A stretch of 64,000 nt of DNA, taken from assembly GCF_003790525.1 (NCBI RefSeq), contig NZ_CP033635.1, one strand, 5' to 3'. This DNA is from Escherichia coli. Lineage in GTDB: Bacteria > Pseudomonadota > Gammaproteobacteria > Enterobacterales > Enterobacteriaceae. Position 1 is the first letter of the stretch; every line of letters starts with the position of its first letter. The position numbers were made by a program, and so were the translations under genes. This document shows positions 20,648 to 61,294 of the stretch, one piece after another. The notes beneath the pieces are model-generated. The model saw only the letters and a program-made list of their open reading frames with translations. It was not told where the DNA came from and searched no databases.

Positions 20648-22888
20648 ATGAACAAGAAGATTCATTCCCTGGCCTTGTTGGTCAATCTGGGGATTTATGG
20701 GGTAGCACAGGCACAAGAGCCGACCGATACTCCTGTTTCACATGACGATACTATTGTTGTTACCGCCGCCGAGCAGAACTTGCAGGCGCCCGGCGTTTCG
20801 ACCATCACCGCAGATGAAATCCGCAAAAACCCGGTTGCCCGCGATGTATCGGAGATTATCCGTACCATGCCTGGCGTTAACCTGACCGGTAATTCCACCA
20901 GTGGTCAGCGTGGTAATAACCGCCAGATTGATATTCGCGGCATGGGTCCGGAAAACACGCTGATTTTGATTGACGGCAAGCCAGTAAGCAGCCGTAACTC
21001 AGTGCGTCAGGGCTGGCGTGGCGAGCGCGATACCCGTGGTGATACCTCCTGGGTGCCGCCTGAAATGATTGAACGTATTGAAGTTCTGCGTGGTCCGGCA
21101 GCTGCGCGTTATGGCAACGGCGCGGCGGGCGGCGTGGTTAACATCATTACCAAAAAAGGCAGCGGTGAGTGGCACGGCTCCTGGGATGCTTATTTCAATG
21201 CGCCAGAACATAAAGAGGAAGGTGCCACCAAACGCACCAACTTCAGCCTGACCGGTCCGCTGGGCGACGAATTCAGCTTCCGCTTGTATGGCAACCTCGA
21301 CAAAACCCAGGCTGACGCGTGGGATATCAACCAGGGCCATCAGTCCGCGCGTGCCGGAACGTATGCCACGACGTTACCAGCCGGGCGCGAAGGGGTGATC
21401 AACAAAGATATTAATGGCGTGGTGCGCTGGGACTTCGCGCCTCTGCAGTCACTCGAACTGGAAGCGGGCTACAGCCGCCAGGGTAACCTGTATGCGGGTG
21501 ATACGCAGAACACCAACTCTGACGCTTACACTCGCTCGAAATATGGCGATGAAACCAACCGCCTGTATCGCCAGAACTACTCGCTGACCTGGAACGGTGG
21601 CTGGGATAACGGCGTGACCACCAGCAACTGGGTGCAGTACGAACACACCCGTAACTCGCGTATTCCGGAAGGTCTGGCGGGCGGTACTGAAGGGAAATTT
21701 AACGAAAAAGCGGCACAGGATTTTGTAGATATCGATCTTGATGACGTGATGCTGCACAGCGAAGTTAACCTGCCGATTGATTTCCTCGTAAACCAAACGC
21801 TGACGCTGGGTACAGAGTGGAATCAGCAGCGGATGAAGGATTTAAGTTCCAACACCCAGGCGCTCACCGGGACGAATACCGGCGGCGCTATTGATGGTGT
21901 GAGTGCCACCGACCGTAGCCCGTATTCAAAAGCAGAAATTTTCTCGCTATTTGCCGAAAACAATATGGAGCTGACTGACAGCACCATCGTAACGCCGGGG
22001 CTGCGTTTCGATCATCACAGCATTGTTGGCAATAACTGGAGTCCGGCTCTAAACATATCGCAAGGTTTAGGTGATGACTTCACGCTGAAAATGGGCATTG
22101 CCCGCGCCTATAAAGCGCCGAGCCTGTACCAGACTAACCCGAACTACATTCTCTACAGTAAAGGTCAGGGCTGTTACGCCAGCGCGGGCGGCTGCTATCT
22201 GCAGGGGAACGATGACCTGAAAGCGGAAACCAGTATCAACAAAGAGATTGGTCTGGAGTTCAAACGCGACGGCTGGCTGGCGGGCGTGACCTGGTTCCGT
22301 AACGATTATCGCAATAAGATTGAAGCGGGCTATGTGGCTGTAGGGCAAAATGCGGCTGGCACCGATCTCTATCAGTGGGATAACGTGCCGAAAGCGGTGG
22401 TTGAAGGTCTGGAAGGATCGTTAAACGTACCGGTTAGCGAAACGGTGATGTGGACCAATAACATCACTTATATGCTGAAGAGTGAAAACAAAACCACGGG
22501 CGACCGTTTGTCGATCATCCCGGAGTATACGTTGAACTCAACGCTGAGCTGGCAGGCACGGGAAGATTTGTCGATGCAAACAACCTTCACCTGGTACGGC
22601 AAGCAGCAGCCGAAGAAGTACAACTATAAAGGTCAGCCAGCGGTTGGACCGGAAACCAAAGAAATCAGCCCGTACAGCATTGTTGGCCTGAGCGCGACCT
22701 GGGATGTGACGAAGAATGTCAGTCTGACCGGCGGCGTGGACAACCTGTTCGACAAACGTTTGTGGCGTGCGGGTAATGCCCAGACCACGGGCGATCTGGC
22801 AGGGGCCAACTATATCGCCGGTGCCGGTGCGTATACCTATAACGAGCCGGGACGTACGTGGTATATGAGCGTAAACACTCACTTCTGA
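20648..22888 (+). CDS. fepA: TonB-dependent outer-membrane ferric-enterobactin receptor
   Basis: 746-aa protein starting MNKKIHSLALLVNLGIYGVAQA (signal peptide) with a TonB box and a C-terminal aromatic residue. The listed ORF has a 20-codon upstream extension. Confidence 0.95.
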   Translation: MNKKIHSLALLVNLGIYGVAQAQEPTDTPVSHDDTIVVTAAEQNLQAPGVSTITADEIRKNPVARDVSEIIRTMPGVNLTGNSTSGQRGNNRQIDIRGMGPENTLILIDGKPVSSRNSVRQGWRGERDTRGDTSWVPPEMIERIEVLRGPAAARYGNGAAGGVVNIITKKGSGEWHGSWDAYFNAPEHKEEGATKRTNFSLTGPLGDEFSFRLYGNLDKTQADAWDINQGHQSARAGTYATTLPAGREGVINKDINGVVRWDFAPLQSLELEAGYSRQGNLYAGDTQNTNSDAYTRSKYGDETNRLYRQNYSLTWNGGWDNGVTTSNWVQYEHTRNSRIPEGLAGGTEGKFNEKAAQDFVDIDLDDVMLHSEVNLPIDFLVNQTLTLGTEWNQQRMKDLSSNTQALTGTNTGGAIDGVSATDRSPYSKAEIFSLFAENNMELTDSTIVTPGLRFDHHSIVGNNWSPALNISQGLGDDFTLKMGIARAYKAPSLYQTNPNYILYSKGQGCYASAGGCYLQGNDDLKAETSINKEIGLEFKRDGWLAGVTWFRNDYRNKIEAGYVAVGQNAAGTDLYQWDNVPKAVVEGLEGSLNVPVSETVMWTNNITYMLKSENKTTGDRLSIIPEYTLNSTLSWQAREDLSMQTTFTWYGKQQPKKYNYKGQPAVGPETKEISPYSIVGLSATWDVTKNVSLTGGVDNLFDKRLWRAGNAQTTGDLAGANYIAGAGAYTYNEPGRTWYMSVNTHF

Positions 22889-22927
22889 TGCTAACGTCAG
22901 ATTGTTGACAAAGTGCGCGTCGTTCAT

Positions 22928-23025
22928 GCCGGATGCGGCGTGAACGCCTTATCCGGCCTACAAAAATCTTGCCAATTCAATATATTGCAGGATAGTGTAG
23001 GCCTGATAAGCGTAGCGCATCAGGC
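22928..23025. repeat. BIME: two inverted REP palindromes between fepA and entD
   Basis: GCCGGATGCGGCGTGAACGCCTTATCCGGCCTAC (22928-22961) and the inverted GTAGGCCTGATAAGCGTAGCGCATCAGGC (22997-23025) are canonical E. coli REP sequences. Confidence 0.75.
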
Positions 23026-23062
23026 AGTTTTGCGTTTGTCATCAGTCTCTAATATGGTCGAC

Positions 23063-23683
23063 ATGAAAACTACGCATACCGCCCTCCCCTTTGCCGGAAA
23101 TACGCTGCATTTTGTTAAGTTCGATCCGGCGAGTTTTTGTGAGCAGGATTTACTCTGGCTGCCACACTACGCGCAACTGCAACACGCTGGACGTAAACGT
23201 AAAACAGAGCATTTAGCCGGACGGATCGCTGCAGTTTATGCGCTGCGGGAATATGGCTATAAATGTGTGCCCGCAATCGGCGAGCTACGCCAACCTGTGT
23301 GGCCTGCGGGGGTATACGGCAGCATTAGTCACTGTGGGACTACGGCATTAGCCGTGGTATCTCGTCAACCGATTGGCATTGATATTGAAGAGATTTTTTC
23401 TGCGCAAACAGCGGCAGAATTGACAGACAACATTATTACGCCAGCGGAACACAAGCGACTCGCAGACTGCGGTTTAGCCTTTTCTCTGGCGCTGACACTG
23501 GCATTTTCCGCCAAAGAGAGCGCATTTAAGGCATGTGAGAGACAAACTGATGCAGGATTTCTGGACTATCAGATAATTAACTGGAATAAACAGCAGGTCA
23601 TCATTCATCGTGAGAATAAGATGTTTGCTGTGCACTGGCAGATAAAAGAAAAGATAGTCATAACGCTGTGCCAACACAATTAA
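23063..23683 (+). CDS. entD: 4'-phosphopantetheinyl transferase for EntB/EntF
   Basis: 206-aa protein starting MKTTHT; an alternative start MVDMKTT lies at 23054. The listed ORF (from 22913) reads through the REP element and is judged an artefact. Confidence 0.9.
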   Translation: MKTTHTALPFAGNTLHFVKFDPASFCEQDLLWLPHYAQLQHAGRKRKTEHLAGRIAAVYALREYGYKCVPAIGELRQPVWPAGVYGSISHCGTTALAVVSRQPIGIDIEEIFSAQTAAELTDNIITPAEHKRLADCGLAFSLALTLAFSAKESAFKACERQTDAGFLDYQIINWNKQQVIIHRENKMFAVHWQIKEKIVITLCQHN

Positions 23684-23794
23684 TTGACAATATCTGGTAC
23701 GATTCGCCCGCAGCCATCACTGACCACGGGCGAAAGTGTAAAGCAGGTGCCTTACCATCCTGACCTGACAACCGGATATGCGGGGATTGCTCCC

Positions 23795-25130
23795 ATAAGC
23801 GCTAACTTAAGGGTTGTGGTATTACGCCTGATATGATTTAACGTGCCGATGAATTACTCTCACGATAACTGGTCAGCAATTCTGGCCCATATTGGTAAGC
23901 CCGAAGAACTGGATACTTCGGCACGTAATGCCGGGGCTCTAACCCGCCGCCGCGAAATTCGTGATGCTGCAACTCTGCTACGTCTGGGGCTGGCTTACGG
24001 CCCCGGGGGATGTCATTACGTGAAGTCACTGCATGGGCTCAGCTCCATGACGTTGCAACATTATCTGACGTGGCTCTCCTGAAGCGGCTGCGGAATGCCG
24101 CCGACTGGTTTGGCATACTTGCCGCACAAACACTTGCTGTACGCGCCGCAGTTACGGGTTGTACAAGCGGAAAGAGATTGCGTCTTGTCGATGGAACAGC
24201 AATCAGTGCGCCCGGGGGCGGCAGCGCTGAATGGCGACTACATATGGGATATGATCCTCATACCTGTCAGTTCACTGATTTTGAGCTAACCGACAGCAGA
24301 GACGCTGAACGGCTGGACCGATTTGCGCAAACGGCAGACGAGATACGCATTGCTGACCGGGGATTCGGTTCGCGTCCCGAATGTATCCGCTCACTTGCTT
24401 TTGGAGAAGCTGATTATATCGTCCGGGTTCACTGGCGAGGATTGCGCTGGTTAACTGCAGAAGGAATGCGCTTTGACATGATGGGTTTTCTGCGCGGGCT
24501 GGATTGCGGTAAGAACGGTGAAACCACTGTAATGATAGGCAATTCAGGTAATAAAAAAGCCGGAGCTCCCTTTCCGGCACGTCTCATTGCCGTATCACTT
24601 CCTCCCGAAAAAGCATTAATCAGTAAAACCCGACTGCTCAGCGAGAATCGTCGAAAAGGACGAGTAGTTCAGGCGGAAACGCTGGAAGCAGCGGGCCATG
24701 TGCTATTGCTAACATCATTACCGGAAGATGAATATTCAGCAGAGCAAGTGGCTGATTGTTACCGTCTGCGATGGCAAATTGAACTGGCTTTTAAGCGGCT
24801 CAAAAGTTTGCTGCACCTGGATGCTTTGCGTGCAAAGGAACCTGAACTCGCGAAAGCGTGGATATTTGCTAATCTACTCGCCGCATTTTTAATTGACGAC
24901 ATAATCCAGCCATCGCTGGATTTCCCCCCCAGAAGTGCCGGATCCGAAAAGAAGAACTAACTCGTTGTGGAGAATAACAAAAATGGTCATCTGGAGCTTA
25001 CAGGTGGCCATTCGTGGGACAGTATCCCTGACAGCCTACAAAACGCAATTGAAGAACGCGAGGCATCGTCTTAACGAGGCACCGAGGCGTCGCATTCTTC
25101 AGATGGTTCAACCCTTAAGTTAGCGCTTAT
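23795..25130 (+). mobile_element. Insertion sequence IS186 (IS4 family)
   Basis: Perfect 22-bp terminal inverted repeats (ATAAGCGCTAACTTAAGGGTTG at 23795-23816; reverse complement at 25109-25130), flanked by a 12-bp direct repeat GGGATTGCTCCC (23783-23794 and 25131-25142). Exact ends are ambiguous by 1 bp because the target is palindromic. Confidence 0.9.
23849..24960 (+). pseudogene. insL: IS186 transposase InsL, interrupted by an apparent 1-bp frameshift at a G5 run
   Basis: An N-terminal frame (MNYSHDNW..LAYGPGG, stop at 24080-24082) and a C-terminal frame (MSLREVTAWAQ.., 24010..24960) overlap and switch frame at GGGGG 24005-24009. Together they reconstitute a single IS4-type transposase of about 370 aa. 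Confidence 0.7.
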
Positions 25131-25152
25131 GGGATTGCTCCCCGCACAACGG

Positions 25153-25305
25153 CTACTTCTTCGGTTCGTAAGCGAGAACAGCCTTAAACTCAATATTACG
25201 TTCCTTCACCGTAAACTCACACAGCGAGTCTCCGACCAGAAGCGTAAATCCCAGCACCGTCAAACACAGCACTATGACTGCCACAAGGGCATATTTCGTC
25301 AGCAT
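25153..25305 (-). CDS. hokE: Hok-family type I toxin (small membrane peptide)
   Basis: 50-aa peptide [50 protein letters not shown], typical Hok/Gef. The listed 88-aa ORF is an in-frame upstream extension. Confidence 0.85.
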
Positions 25306-25737
25306 GTTTATATTGCCTCCATGCGAAGAAGGGACTACCATCCAAATTGTTCGGGTTTGGAGTGGCAGCCCCAGGGTTGATAGAAATATCTCCTGGGGCT
25401 TCATCTTTCCAGACCTCAAAGTTAACCTGAAACCGGAAAGCTTCAGGCACCCGCCGTTATCTTACCCTTCCTCAACAAAATAGCTGTTTATTTATACAGT
25501 AAATCCTGTTTCGGACTTCTCACTCCCCATTTGATCAACTGAAGCTGAACCCGTTTTTATCTGCACGCCTCAATCGTCAAAATTCTTCGCCGCCAGCCAA
25601 CTATGACGCAACTGGTCACATTGCAAAATGTAGCCAATTTGCTTCAGTCACCATCACCAAAAAAAGAAATATTCCAGAACTTCCGCATCTCGCCCAGTCG
25701 CTCCCACTTCTATACTGAATAGAAAACGCCAACATAA

Positions 25738-29716: not shown

Positions 29717-29760
29717 AAAAAAACCGCTCTCATCGCATGGATGAGAGCGGACATCGTTTT
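29717..29760. terminator. Bidirectional intrinsic terminator between convergent ybdG and pheP
   Basis: Perfect 11-bp stem CCGCTCTCATC / GATGAGAGCGG (29724-29734 and 29740-29750) with a 5-nt loop, preceded by an A-run and followed by a T-rich tract. Confidence 0.6.
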
Positions 29761-29781
29761 GTCGGATGTGGCGTGAATGCC

Positions 29782-31158
29782 TTATTTCCGACGCAGCGTT
29801 TTAAATGCCACAAACAGGAATACAATCCACACCGGCAGCAGAATCGCTGACAAGCGCATATCATCCATCGTGCACATCAGCAGCAAAATCATGCCGAGGA
29901 AGGCGATGCAGAGATAGTTGCCGAACGGATAGAGCAGCGCCTTAAACTGTGTTTCACGCCCCTGACGTCGCATCGCTGCACGAAAACGCAGATGTGCCAG
30001 ACAGATCATAATCCAGTTCAACAGCAGCGTTGCTACCACCAGCGCCATCAGCAGACCAAACGCTTTTTGCGGCAGCAGATAGTTGATTAACACCACCAGC
30101 GAAGTGATCGCTCCGGAAAGCATCAGCGAGTTAATCGGCACACCGCGACGGCTGACGCGAGTCAAAAACTTCGGCGCATTACCCTGCACAGAAAGGCCAA
30201 ACAGCATGCGGCTGTTAGAGTAAACCCCGCTGTTATACACCGATAATGATGCTACCAGAATGACGAAGTTCAGCGCAGAAGCTACCACGTTGCTGTCGAG
30301 ATTATGGAAAATCATCACAAACGGGCTACTGTTAGATTTCACTTCCACCCACGGATAGAGTGCCAGTAAAACCACCAGTGAACCGATGTAAAACAGCAGG
30401 ATGCGATACACCACCTGATTCACTGCTTTCGGGATGCTTTTTTCCGGAGCGCGCGCTTCAGCGGCAGTAATCCCAATCAGCTCCAGCCCGCCGAAGGAGA
30501 ACATAATCACCGCCAGCGACAAAATCAGCCCATTCCAGCCGGTGGCAAAAAAACCACCGTAGCGCCAGAGGTTATCGATACTGGCTTTCTCGCCGCCGTG
30601 ACCAGAAAACAGCAGCCACAGGCCAAAGCCGATCATACCGATGATCGCCAGCACTTTAATCAGCGCAAACCAGAACTCGGTTTCGCCATATAAGCGCACG
30701 TTCACCAGGTTAACGGCGTTGATGATAATAAAGAAGGCGGCAGCCCAAATCCACGTTGGAACATCCGGGAACCAGTACTGCATATAGATGCCCGCAGCGG
30801 TCAGCTCTGCCATTCCCACCAGCACGAACATTACCCAGTAGTTCCAGCCAGAGAGGAAGCCCGCAAACGGTCCCCAGTATTTATAGGCAAAGTGGGCAAA
30901 TGAACCGGATACCGGCTCCTCAACCACCATTTCGCCGAGCTGGCGCATAATCAGGAAAGCGATGATCCCGGCGACGCCGTAGCCCAGCAATACAGCCGGA
31001 CCCGCCATCTGAATCGCCGGGCCAATGCCAAGAAACAGACCAGTACCAATTGCGCCACCCAGCGCAATCAGTTGAATATGACGGTTATGTAATCCGCGAT
31101 GAAGCGTCGGCTCTTGATTCGACGCAGTATCTTCCGATACGGTTGACGCGTTTTTCAC
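29782..31158 (-). CDS. pheP: Phenylalanine-specific permease (APC family)
   Basis: 458-aa protein with a GTG start (VKNASTV); the listed ORF extends 12 codons upstream; matches remembered PheP. Confidence 0.92.
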   Translation of the reverse strand: MKNASTVSEDTASNQEPTLHRGLHNRHIQLIALGGAIGTGLFLGIGPAIQMAGPAVLLGYGVAGIIAFLIMRQLGEMVVEEPVSGSFAHFAYKYWGPFAGFLSGWNYWVMFVLVGMAELTAAGIYMQYWFPDVPTWIWAAAFFIIINAVNLVNVRLYGETEFWFALIKVLAIIGMIGFGLWLLFSGHGGEKASIDNLWRYGGFFATGWNGLILSLAVIMFSFGGLELIGITAAEARAPEKSIPKAVNQVVYRILLFYIGSLVVLLALYPWVEVKSNSSPFVMIFHNLDSNVVASALNFVILVASLSVYNSGVYSNSRMLFGLSVQGNAPKFLTRVSRRGVPINSLMLSGAITSLVVLINYLLPQKAFGLLMALVVATLLLNWIMICLAHLRFRAAMRRQGRETQFKALLYPFGNYLCIAFLGMILLLMCTMDDMRLSAILLPVWIVFLFVAFKTLRRK

Positions 31159-58594: not shown

Positions 58595-59104
58595 ATGTCT
58601 TCCCGCAATAATCCGGCGCGTGTCGCCATCGTGATGGGGTCCAAAAGCGACTGGGCTACCATGCAGTTCGCCGCCGAAATCTTCGAAATCCTGAATGTCC
58701 CGCACCACGTTGAAGTGGTTTCTGCTCACCGCACCCCCGACAAACTGTTCAGCTTCGCCGAAAGCGCCGAAGAAAACGGTTATCAGGTGATTATTGCGGG
58801 CGCAGGCGGCGCGGCGCACCTGCCAGGTATGATTGCCGCCAAAACGCTGGTGCCGGTGCTGGGCGTGCCAGTACAGAGCGCCGCACTGAGCGGTGTCGAT
58901 AGTCTCTACTCCATCGTACAAATGCCGCGCGGCATTCCGGTGGGTACGCTGGCGATTGGTAAAGCTGGCGCGGCAAACGCGGCGTTACTGGCAGCACAAA
59001 TTCTTGCGACTCATGATAAAGAACTGCACCAGCGTCTGAATGACTGGCGCAAAGCCCAGACTGACGAAGTGCTGGAAAACCCGGACCCGCGAGGTGCGGC
59101 ATGA
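58595..59104 (+). CDS. purE: N5-carboxyaminoimidazole ribonucleotide mutase
   Basis: 169-aa protein starting [20 protein letters not shown], with AGGAG upstream; the listed ORF has a 9-codon extension. Confidence 0.95.
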
Positions 59105-60168
59105 AACAGGTTTGCGTCCTCGGTAACGGGCAGTTAGGCCGTATGCTGCGTCAGGCAGGCGAACCGTTAGGCATTGCTGTCTGGCCAGTCGGGCTGGACG
59201 CTGAACCGGCGGCGGTGCCTTTTCAACAAAGTGTGATTACCGCTGAGATCGAACGCTGGCCGGAAACCGCATTAACCCGCGAGCTGGCGCGCCATCCGGC
59301 CTTTGTGAACCGCGATGTGTTCCCGATTATTGCTGACCGTCTGACTCAGAAGCAGCTTTTCGATAAGCTCCACCTGCCGACCGCACCGTGGCAGTTACTT
59401 GCCGATCGCAGCGAGTGGCCTGCGGTGTTTGATCGTTTAGGTGAGCTGGCGATTGTTAAGCGTCGCACTGGTGGCTATGACGGACGCGGTCAATGGCGTT
59501 TACGCGCCGATGAAACCGAACAGTTACCGACTGAATGCTACGGCGAATGTATTGTCGAGCAGGGCATAAACTTCTCTGGTGAAGTGTCGCTGGTTGGCGC
59601 GCGCGGCTTTGATGGTAGTACCGTGTTTTATCCGCTGACGCATAACCTGCATCAGGACGGTATTTTGCGCACCAGCGTCGCTTTCCCGCAGGCCAACGCG
59701 CAGCAGCAGGCGCAGGCCGAAGAGATGCTGTCGGCGATTATGCAGGAGCTGGGCTATGTGGGCGTGATGGCGATGGAGTGTTTTGTCACCCCACAAGGTC
59801 TGCTGATCAACGAACTGGCTCCGCGTGTGCATAACAGTGGGCACTGGACGCAAAACGGTGCCAGCATCAGCCAGTTTGAGCTGCATCTGCGGGCGATTAC
59901 CGATCTGCCGTTACCACAACCGGTGGTGAATAGTCCGTCGGTGATGATCAACCTGATTGGTAGCGATGTGAATTATGACTGGCTGAAACTGCCGCTGGTG
60001 CATCTGCACTGGTACGACAAAGAAGTCCGTCCGGGGCGTAAAGTGGGGCATTTAAATTTGACCGACAGCGACACATCGCGTCTGACCGCGACGCTGGAAG
60101 CCTTAATCCCGCTGCTGCCGCCAGAATATGCTAGCGGCGTGATTTGGGCGCAGAGCAAGTTCAGTTAA
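59101..60168 (+). CDS. purK: N5-carboxyaminoimidazole ribonucleotide synthetase (ATP-grasp)
   Basis: 355-aa ORF; its ATG overlaps the purE stop (ATGA). Confidence 0.95.
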
Positions 60169-60185
60169 TTGATGCTCATTTTCTT

Positions 60186-60370
60186 GCCGCATGCGGCGTG
60201 AACGCCTTATCCGGCCTACCGTTCCAACACCGACTGTAGGCCTGATAAGATGCGCCAGCATCGCATCAGGCATGGTGTGCCGATTGCCGGATGCGGCGTG
60301 AACGCCTTATCCGGCCTACCGTTCCGACACCGCCTGTAGACCTGATAAGACGCGCCAGCATCGCATCAGG
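60186..60370. repeat. BIME: four REP palindromes in alternating orientation downstream of purK
   Basis: REP units at about 60186-60219, 60235-60270, 60286-60319 and 60335-60370, i.e. an approximately 100-bp unit repeated twice (GCCGGATGCGGCGTGAACGCCTTATCCGGCCTAC and GTAGGCCTGATAAG..CATCAGGC). Confidence 0.75.
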
Positions 60371-60400
60371 CTAGATGTGCCAATTGCCTGGTGCCCATCA

Positions 60401-61294
60401 CTACAGCGAAATACAGGTCCCCGCTTCGCCCGCCAGCGTCTCTTCAATTCGCGATAACGCCCCAATCCACGCGGGTTTACCACGGCTTCTGACATAGCCA
60501 CTCACTGCCGTTACCTTCGGCCCCATCGAACCATCGGCTTTGGCAAGTGGCGCTAACTCATCCGGTGTGGCATGGCGAATGGCACGTTGCTGCGGCGTTC
60601 CCCAGTTTTCATATACCGCATCAGCATCGGTGAGGATCACCAGTCCATCGGCATTAATCTGCTCGGCGAGCAACGCAGCGGCGAGATCTTTATCAATCAC
60701 TGCTTCACTCCCTACTCCGTCATCCGTCACAGGCACACCGCCGCCGCCACTGCAAATCACCACATGCCCCTCTTTGAGCAACAACTCGATGGCTTCGCTG
60801 TCGAGAATATTACGCGGTTGCGGAGACGCCACCACCCGGCGCAAATATTTACCATCACGTTTCATCTGCCAGCCGTAAGCAGCTTCCAGTGCCTCTTGTT
60901 CTTCTGGCTGATAAACCGGACCGATAAACTTCTCTGGCTGCAAAAACGCCGGATCATCAGGCGAAACCTCAATGCGCGTCAGCACCGTCGTGACAGGCGG
61001 CATCTGCGGCTGTGCGCTCAAGCTCTGCACCAGCATATAGCCAATCATCCCCTGGCTTTCCGCCACCAGCACATCCAGCGGATACGGTTCTACCTCTTTC
61101 CACGCCAGATTCTGTAACGCCAACAGCCCCACCTGTGGCCCGTTGCCGTGAACAATCGCCAGCCGATAAGAACGGGCCAGGCGCGCCAGCGCGGGTACAG
61201 CACTGGCAATATTGCGATATTGATTTTCTGCCGTCAGCGCCTCACCGCGCTGGAGTAAGGCGTTGCCCCCAAGAGCCACAACCAGTGTTTTCAT
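60401..61294 (-). CDS. ybcF: Carbamate kinase-like protein (ArcC family)
   Basis: 297-aa protein starting [18 protein letters not shown] (amino-acid kinase fold); the listed ORF has a 38-codon extension overlapping ylbF. Confidence 0.88.

Follow-up and report, generated by a model that had tools for sequence, protein, structure and literature searches.

A BIME-2 array of strain-variable length between purK and ybcF, a BIME-1 element between fepA and entD and a probable REP remnant at the end of pheP in Escherichia coli

The 64,000-nucleotide stretch of Escherichia coli DNA analyzed here (the window) very probably holds a BIME-2 array in the shared 3' region of purK and ybcF, a BIME-1 element between fepA and entD and a decayed Y REP at pheP, with roles that would be those of the repeat family at large; the array would be a dispensable modulator. 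REP and BIME elements are among the longest-known bacterial repeats, and all elements of the window are of already known kinds, conforming to two textbook classes. Beyond correct annotation, their importance is little.

Gene positions were taken from the RefSeq annotation of the identical sequence of strain SMS-3-5, and for purK also from the list of open reading frames (Table 1); the K-12 RefSeq feature table gives no REP features. The window is 100% identical to SMS-3-5 (NC_010498.1) over positions 25131-64000 and 99.987% identical over 1-23794, the sole structural difference being a 1,338-bp IS between entD and hokE. This insert (23794-25131) has the termini CATAAGCGCTAACTTAAGGG...CCCTTAAGTTAGCGCTTATG and lies between 10-bp direct repeats GGATTGCTCC (23784-23793 and 25132-25141). 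It is annotated in other genomes as an IS4-like IS421-family (IS186) transposase, and the site is occupied in 1,051 of 5,426 genomes. Nearby, at 25297-25452 on the minus strand, Rfam detects the sok antitoxin RNA that belongs to hokE (81.4 bits). Rfam also places a tRNA at 46894-46967 (minus strand; tRNA-Arg in the SMS-3-5 annotation), followed directly by envY, ybcH and nfrA; in K-12, this tRNA is the site of the DLP12 prophage, which the window does not have.

Table 1. Positions of the repeat elements and their neighboring genes in the window (CM, covariance model).
Feature	Position	Strand	Evidence or remark
fepA	20648-22888	+	SMS-3-5 RefSeq
Y REP of BIME-1	22928-22961	+	0 mismatches; CM 57.6 bits
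L linker, 35 nt	22962-22996	+	Rfam ES036 44.4 bits vs gathering score 37.6; IHF-like core
Z1 (short) REP, 29 nt	22997-23025	-	0 mismatches to 29-nt consensus; hairpin -11.5 kcal/mol; CM 42 bits
entD	23063-23683	+	SMS-3-5 RefSeq
ybdG	ends 29714	+	SMS-3-5 RefSeq
Y REP remnant	29761-29792	+	CM 13.3 bits, E 0.28; alignment with strain A3 allele
pheP	29782-31158	-	SMS-3-5 RefSeq
purK CDS	59101-60168	+	ORF list and SMS-3-5 RefSeq; 3' UTR enters array
Y REP no. 1	60186-60219	+	1 mismatch to Y consensus; 32/34 to REP325 Y; CM 53.3 bits; hairpin -14.4 kcal/mol
16-nt short linker, copy 1 (CGTTCCAACACCGACT)	60220-60235	.	Between CTAC and GTAG feet; S position of BIME-2; sequence reading
Z2 REP no. 1, inverted vs Y	60236-60271	-	33/36 to REP325 Z2; hairpin -19.1/-20.0 kcal/mol; CM 52.4 bits
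naRNA4-matching stretch (inverted Y, linker, Z2)	60239-60316	-	One BIME-2 unit in ybcF sense; 83.1 bits
14-nt inter-unit linker (ATGGTGTGCCGATT)	60272-60285	.	Sequence reading
Y REP no. 2 = consensus	60286-60319	+	0 mismatches; hairpin -21.3 kcal/mol; CM 57.6 bits
16-nt short linker, copy 2 (CGTTCCGACACCGCCT)	60320-60335	.	Sequence reading
Z2 REP no. 2	60336-60371	-	33/36 to REP325 Z2; CM 49.2 bits; hairpin -12.4/-17.5 kcal/mol
Terminal linker (TAGATGTGCCAATT) and vestigial third Y start (GCCTGGTGCCC)	60372-60396	.	Comparison with BL21 and O157 alleles
ybcF (carbamate kinase)	60401-61294	-	SMS-3-5 RefSeq; convergent with purK; 3' UTR enters array from opposite side

The REP foot CTTATCMGGCCTAC, allowing two mismatches at most, has 6 matches in the 64-kb window against 0.5 expected, and a scan with three consensus sequences (Y, Z1 and Z2) returned 8 matches where 0.02 were expected by chance. 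The six full REP units differ from their Y, Z1 or Z2 consensus at 0 to 2 positions, carry the CTAC (GTAG/CTAC) foot without exception (6/6) and are all extragenic, lying in the purK-ybcF and fepA-entD spacers. When compared to REP325 of K-12, the sequence of which was taken from the yjdM-yjdN spacer, the Y units of the purK-ybcF array are identical at 32/34 and 33/34 positions, and its Z units match REP325 Z2 at 33/36. A covariance model of 14 REPs, run unfiltered across the whole window, ranks the same six units first (42 to 57.6 bits); five of the six were in the training set, so these top matches are not independent evidence. No further credible REP was found by the covariance model in the 64 kb beyond the six units and the pheP remnant. 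The ungapped consensus scan missed this remnant as well as a 37-nt Z2 variant (with a TTGAC loop) of K-12, BL21 and O157, and both were recovered by eye and with the covariance model. Queries containing REPs matched a median of at least 35-39 places per genome, indicative of dispersed, high-copy sequences. Hence, the earlier note, which had assigned the palindromes to the REP family as BIMEs, is supported by the alignment of the units to the Y, Z1 and Z2 consensus and to REP325.

Each of the six REPs folds as a canonical bulged hairpin of -11.5 to -21.3 kcal/mol, in which the internal loop is 2x2. In longer RNAs, folding predicts that the 3' arm of a Y can pair with the adjacent inverted Z to form one long composite hairpin. 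In the alignment of 14 REPs, 99.3% of the cells are paired, 4 pairs vary on both sides, and one stem position shows G-C, U-A, A-U and C-G.

The spacer between the convergent genes purK and ybcF is 232 bp long and holds two 100-bp units, each of which runs in the order Y on the plus strand, 16-nt linker, inverted Z2 on the minus strand, 14-nt linker. Tandem Repeats Finder reported a tandem repeat at 60184-60388 (period 100, 2.0 copies, 91% matches), and a repeat search of the window gave two 100-nt copies with 91% identity plus the hairpin arms within each REP. Four REPs of alternating orientation, in a unit of about 100 bp repeated twice after purK, had been claimed from a first inspection, and the repeat finder and the consensus scan agree on them; of the limits then given, 60186-60370, the start is correct and the end falls short, since the last REP ends one base further, at 60371. 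After the terminal linker (60372-60385), the left arm of a third Y restarts (TTGCCTGGTGCCC) at about 60386-60396, and the array stops inside this arm; the vestige reads TTGCCGGATGC in the BL21 and O157 alleles. The first Y carries a G-to-C change at 60190, which places a C-C mismatch in the outer stem, makes a perfect mini-palindrome GCCGCATGCGGC and weakens the hairpin to -14.4 from the -21.3 kcal/mol of an intact Y. Position 60190 is G in CFT073 and APEC E14033, both of which share the leader haplotype of the window. BIME-2 elements are defined as y and z2 units with short linkers, in tandem copies the number of which varies among strains (PMC3333891), and by this definition the array is a BIME-2 as judged from its sequence. 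Linkers of BIMEs vary among loci and are conserved inside one locus (PMC3333891), a remark that fits the array, the linkers of which are unlike those of REP325.

The spacer between fepA and entD measures 174 bp and separates two genes on the same strand, which are known to form an operon. A two-REP unit at 22928-23025 had been proposed there, and its coordinates proved exact. The consensus of ES036 corresponds approximately to the L linker plus GTAGGCCT. Inside the linker, ATTCAATATATTG (22975-22987) matches 12 of 13 positions of the IHF core consensus WATCAANNNNTTR, a low-information motif. The L linker of BIME-1 often carries an IHF site (PMC3333891). With one Y, a long conserved L with an IHF-like site and one Z1, all in single copy, the fepA-entD element is by composition a BIME-1. 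A promoter-like match in the linker (22969-22996, 9/12) was rejected as being at chance level, since 0.4 such matches were expected and 1 was seen. Read in the direction of fepA, Z1 leads into a U-rich AGTTTTGCGTTTG; the window reads AGTTTTGCGTTTGTC at 23026-23040, with 8 T in 14 nt. Judged by these letters, entD may be preceded by a weak intrinsic terminator or an attenuator made of Z1 and its T-rich tail. The terminator scan called no intrinsic terminator in 22700-23300, and Z1 at 23025 escaped it because the REP stem is bulged. Literature searches found nothing that links bacterial interspersed mosaic elements with fepA and nothing relevant on ES036.

The REP-like palindrome that the earlier note had placed at the 3' end of pheP, at 29761-29792, is real, folding at -12.8 to -14.1 kcal/mol, but it is not an intact REP. 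It is the 7th-best match of the covariance model in the window, which alone is not significant, and it fails the consensus scan at a 30% mismatch limit. In place of the CTAC foot it reads GCAG, and it overlaps 11 nt of the coding sequence (the last three codons and the stop codon), meaning that it is not extragenic. The pheP stop codon (29782-29784, minus strand) falls in the REP-derived CTTAT. How such a remnant arose can be read from a pheP allele that is 96 bp longer and present in 6 of 40 sampled rows (~15%). In strain A3, this long allele (locus extract L016, 155-312) contains GTCGGATGCGGCGTGAACGCCTTATCCGACCTAC, which is a variant Y, intact and with a T-A pair that is compensatory; another REP-like unit comes after it in inverted orientation, and PheP ends in RRKVN; the window and K-12 proteins end in RRK, two residues shorter. 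In the window and K-12, the left two-thirds of the A3-type Y is joined straight to TTTCCGACG of pheP, and this fusion makes PheP end in RRK with a stop codon supplied by the REP CTTAT. The simplest reading of the two alleles is that the pheP palindrome is a deletion derivative of a Y REP fused to the end of pheP, which would make it a small, clean case of a REP-adjacent deletion rewriting a stop codon. One pheP Arg codon differs synonymously between the window (CGG) and A3 (AGG), and this difference completes a 6-bp stem, GTCGGA/TCCGAC. The true terminator of the convergent ybdG/pheP pair is a hairpin at 29724-29750 with A/T runs; Harris et al. (2026 preprint, supplement) include it, under ybdG:pheP, among bidirectional terminators. 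K-12-type genomes (L015) have 13 extra bases, GTTTCGGATGGTT, right after this hairpin; their absence at window position 29750-29751 shortens the T-rich stretch on the ybdG side.

A comparison of REP copy number across E. coli genomes, which the earlier note had proposed as a check, revealed strong polymorphism at purK and none at fepA-entD among 39 same-locus rows. The purK-ybcF query consisted of the two coding flanks only, which were joined in 5,413 of 5,426 complete E. coli genomes. Spacer lengths were taken from an evenly spaced sample of 59 genomes, and unit content from representative alleles read directly, with the 126- and 128-bp alleles left out. Spacers of 126-138 bp with one unit are found in 25 of the 59 genomes (~40%), and 20 have the K-12 type of 194-204 bp, with an internal deletion in the second Y. 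The two-unit type of the window (232-233 bp) occurs in 4 genomes, five units (532-533 bp) in 6 and six units (632 bp) in 1; 2 genomes have a REP-less spacer of 152 bp, and 1 has a spacer of 119 bp with a Y and then an unrelated palindrome. The unit number across strains is therefore 0, 1, ~1.6, 2, 5 or 6. A single leader haplotype, TTGATGCTCATTTTCTT, is seen with 1 unit (CFT073), 2 units (the window) and 6 units (APEC E14033), indicating repeated change of copy number. In the 119-bp allele (JNE070796, locus extract L012, 251-369), a Y-like REP runs into the palindrome CCTGTGGAAACAGTGATATTTCCAGG instead of a linker and Z2. The REP-less allele is carried by 238 of the 5,426 genomes (4.4%); in MS7163 (locus extract L011, 251-402), a 152-bp sequence containing CCCTCACCCTAACCCTCTCCCCACAGGGGCGAGGGGAC stands in place of window 60169-60400. 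A core of ~50 nt of this allele is present elsewhere in other genomes and is thus another short dispersed repeat, which may resemble the boxC repeat.

In SK0189 (locus extract L018, 3751-5300), the first Y after purK is interrupted in its loop by an IS1397-family element, with the junction GCCGGATGCGGCGTGA|TGAACTGC, so that the role of an IS target, one of those first suggested for the repeats, is directly seen at this locus. IS1397 inserts specifically into the palindromic units of BIMEs, according to the title of a reference cited in PMC3333891. The opposite end of the element abuts a Z2 loop near gsk, and ybcF and its neighbors are no longer next to purK, suggestive of a rearrangement between two IS copies; the arrangement indicates an IS-mediated deletion or inversion.

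Does such turnover matter to the neighboring genes? The repeats might be purely selfish or neutral, kept only by the REP-associated transposase and recombination, with their neighbors unaffected. As an account of the elements as a whole this is possible though rather unlikely, and for the purK array it is a serious alternative. Presence/absence and copy-number polymorphism at purK-ybcF, decay at pheP, the internal deletion of the second Y in K-12 and the IS1397 insertion in SK0189 all support it, as does the finding that TnpA-REP cleaves and recombines BIMEs in vitro (PMC3333891). Against it stand the compensatory changes that keep the REP hairpins paired, and the BIME-1 of fepA-entD: of 39 same-locus rows sampled, 38 have the same span of 571 bp and one is a partial, 552-bp match, and in 5,345 of 5,426 genomes a single place accounts for 80% or more of the query. 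An array that is absent, single or six-fold across strains implies that any role it has is modulatory and dispensable. It is conceivable, although we consider it unlikely, that strains inherit, in the number of purK-ybcF units, a dial that sets local 3'-end processing or termination of purEK and ybcF, or the supercoiling between these two convergent genes; the variation in length would then show in the phenotype and would not be neutral. The hypervariable purK-ybcF spacer is a candidate typing marker, or a natural allelic series for effects of REP copy number.

The array could also be a simple bidirectional intrinsic (Rho-independent) terminator, which is improbable. It is the only strongly structured element between convergent purK and ybcF, with folding energies of -100.5 (z -5.0) and -105.9 kcal/mol (z -3.9) for the 251-nt region, and 78 REPs lie inside predicted bidirectional terminators (Harris et al. 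2026 preprint). However, the scan found no intrinsic terminator, namely a G+C-rich hairpin with a T-run, on either strand of 59900-60700, and most REPs lack a U tract, so that any termination they cause is partial and depends on Rho (Harris et al. 2026 preprint). Since the purK-ybcF spacer has no intrinsic terminator, the REP hairpins are the obvious 3' structures for both transcripts.

Very unlikely is a third possibility, in which the array would encode small nucleoid-associated RNAs of the naRNA4 kind that bind HU and help condense the chromosome. The Rfam naRNA4 model (RF02564) exceeds its gathering score of 59.5 on the minus strand and scores 59.5 bits on the plus strand, and naRNA4 from REP325 is reported to bind HU and restore nucleoid condensation (Qian et al. 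2015, PMC4550694). However, the model is a single BIME-2 unit, taken from REP325, so any Y-Z2 pair matches it, and the match speaks for membership of the repeat family, not for function. Absence of the array from 238 genomes and its 1 to 6 units elsewhere also argue against such a gene, and even for REP325 the role in nucleoid compaction has come into dispute (Harris et al. 2026 preprint). Both Rfam matches in the window, to naRNA4 and ES036, are repeat-family matches and not dedicated sRNA genes. Finally, a miniature CRISPR or other non-REP tandem repeat, to which the regular 100-bp spacing and a weak Rfam CRISPR-DR48 match (20 bits where the gathering score is 50; E 0.54) might point, is ruled out by the alignments of the units to the REP consensus and REP325. 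Successive repeats also face opposite ways, both units share identical "spacers", and no cas genes occur in the annotated neighborhood.

For the preferred reading, a BIME-2 array and a BIME-1 element of ordinary kind, we infer the functional roles at purK-ybcF and fepA-entD from other members of the family. As RNA, the REP hairpins would lie where the purEK and ybcF transcripts end, blocking 3'-to-5' exonucleases and giving partial, mostly Rho-dependent, termination, and between fepA and entD the action of the hairpins would favor fepA over entD. As DNA, the Y units of the BIME-2 would be preferred sites of gyrase binding and cleavage, and the L linker of the BIME-1 would bind IHF. The units would also be substrates for the REP-associated transposase and REP-specific IS elements, with tandem units expanding or contracting via recombination or slippage. 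The roles of mRNA stabilizer, terminator-like pause site and IS target suggested in the earlier note are those given to the family in PMC3333891 and by Harris et al. (2026 preprint). In the latter work, REP325 is a partly Rho-dependent terminator and a stabilizer of upstream mRNA; across the genome, expression is biased to the upstream gene where REPs separate tandem genes, and both genes tend to be more highly expressed where REPs lie between convergent ones, the location of ~60% of REPs. These associations have a large variance, and half-lives are not globally affected (Harris et al. 2026 preprint). One K-12 RNA-seq table in the supplement of the same preprint gives, in a first numeric column that seems to hold mean counts, 348 for fepA and 67 for entD. 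After correction for gene length, this difference is only ~1.4-fold. An effect of the BIME on the entD:fepA ratio is plausible.

Newbury et al. reportedly described REP mRNA stabilizers in operons, of the malE-malF type, in 1987. In stabilizers of this type, REP hairpins lie between cotranscribed genes, and the fepA-entD element could likewise protect the upstream mRNA. Like BIME-1 elements in general (RIB/RIP), it consists of Y, L and Z1, is single-copy and shows no length polymorphism in the sampled genomes. It departs from the class in nothing that was found, and its location is inside an operon, not at the end of a transcription unit.

The purK-ybcF array can be compared with BIME-2 elements that are cut by gyrase. 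BIME-2 elements have an excess of gyrase cleavage sites, greater in y than in z2 and independent of transcription, and cleavage falls on the loops and mismatched stem regions of y-type REPs in a subset of BIME-2 clusters only (PMC6379681). The strongly cleaved BIME-2 elements of sucC-sucB and tldD-yhdP in that study have the same Y plus Z2 composition as purK-ybcF. No gyrase cleavage at purK-ybcF is reported in the main text or text supplements of PMC6379681, and the text supplements have no purK, ybcF, fepA or entD entries.

The closest comparison is with REP325, the BIME-2 of the yjdM-yjdN spacer in K-12 and the source of naRNA1-6, in which 12 palindromic units, Z2 and Y, alternate (Harris et al. 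2026 preprint). The purK-ybcF array likewise has alternating Y and Z2 with a 100-bp period, lies in a 3' UTR and matches naRNA4. REP325, however, has 6 units between tandem genes of one operon, whereas the array has 2 units between convergent genes. Their linkers differ as well, being 16 nt (CGTTCCRACACCGMCT) in the purK-ybcF array and 17 nt (AAATTCCCGCACCCTCC) in REP325. The short linker of the array, ATGGTGTGCCGAT, is like ACGGTGCCGAC of REP325 but is turned around with respect to Y and Z2.
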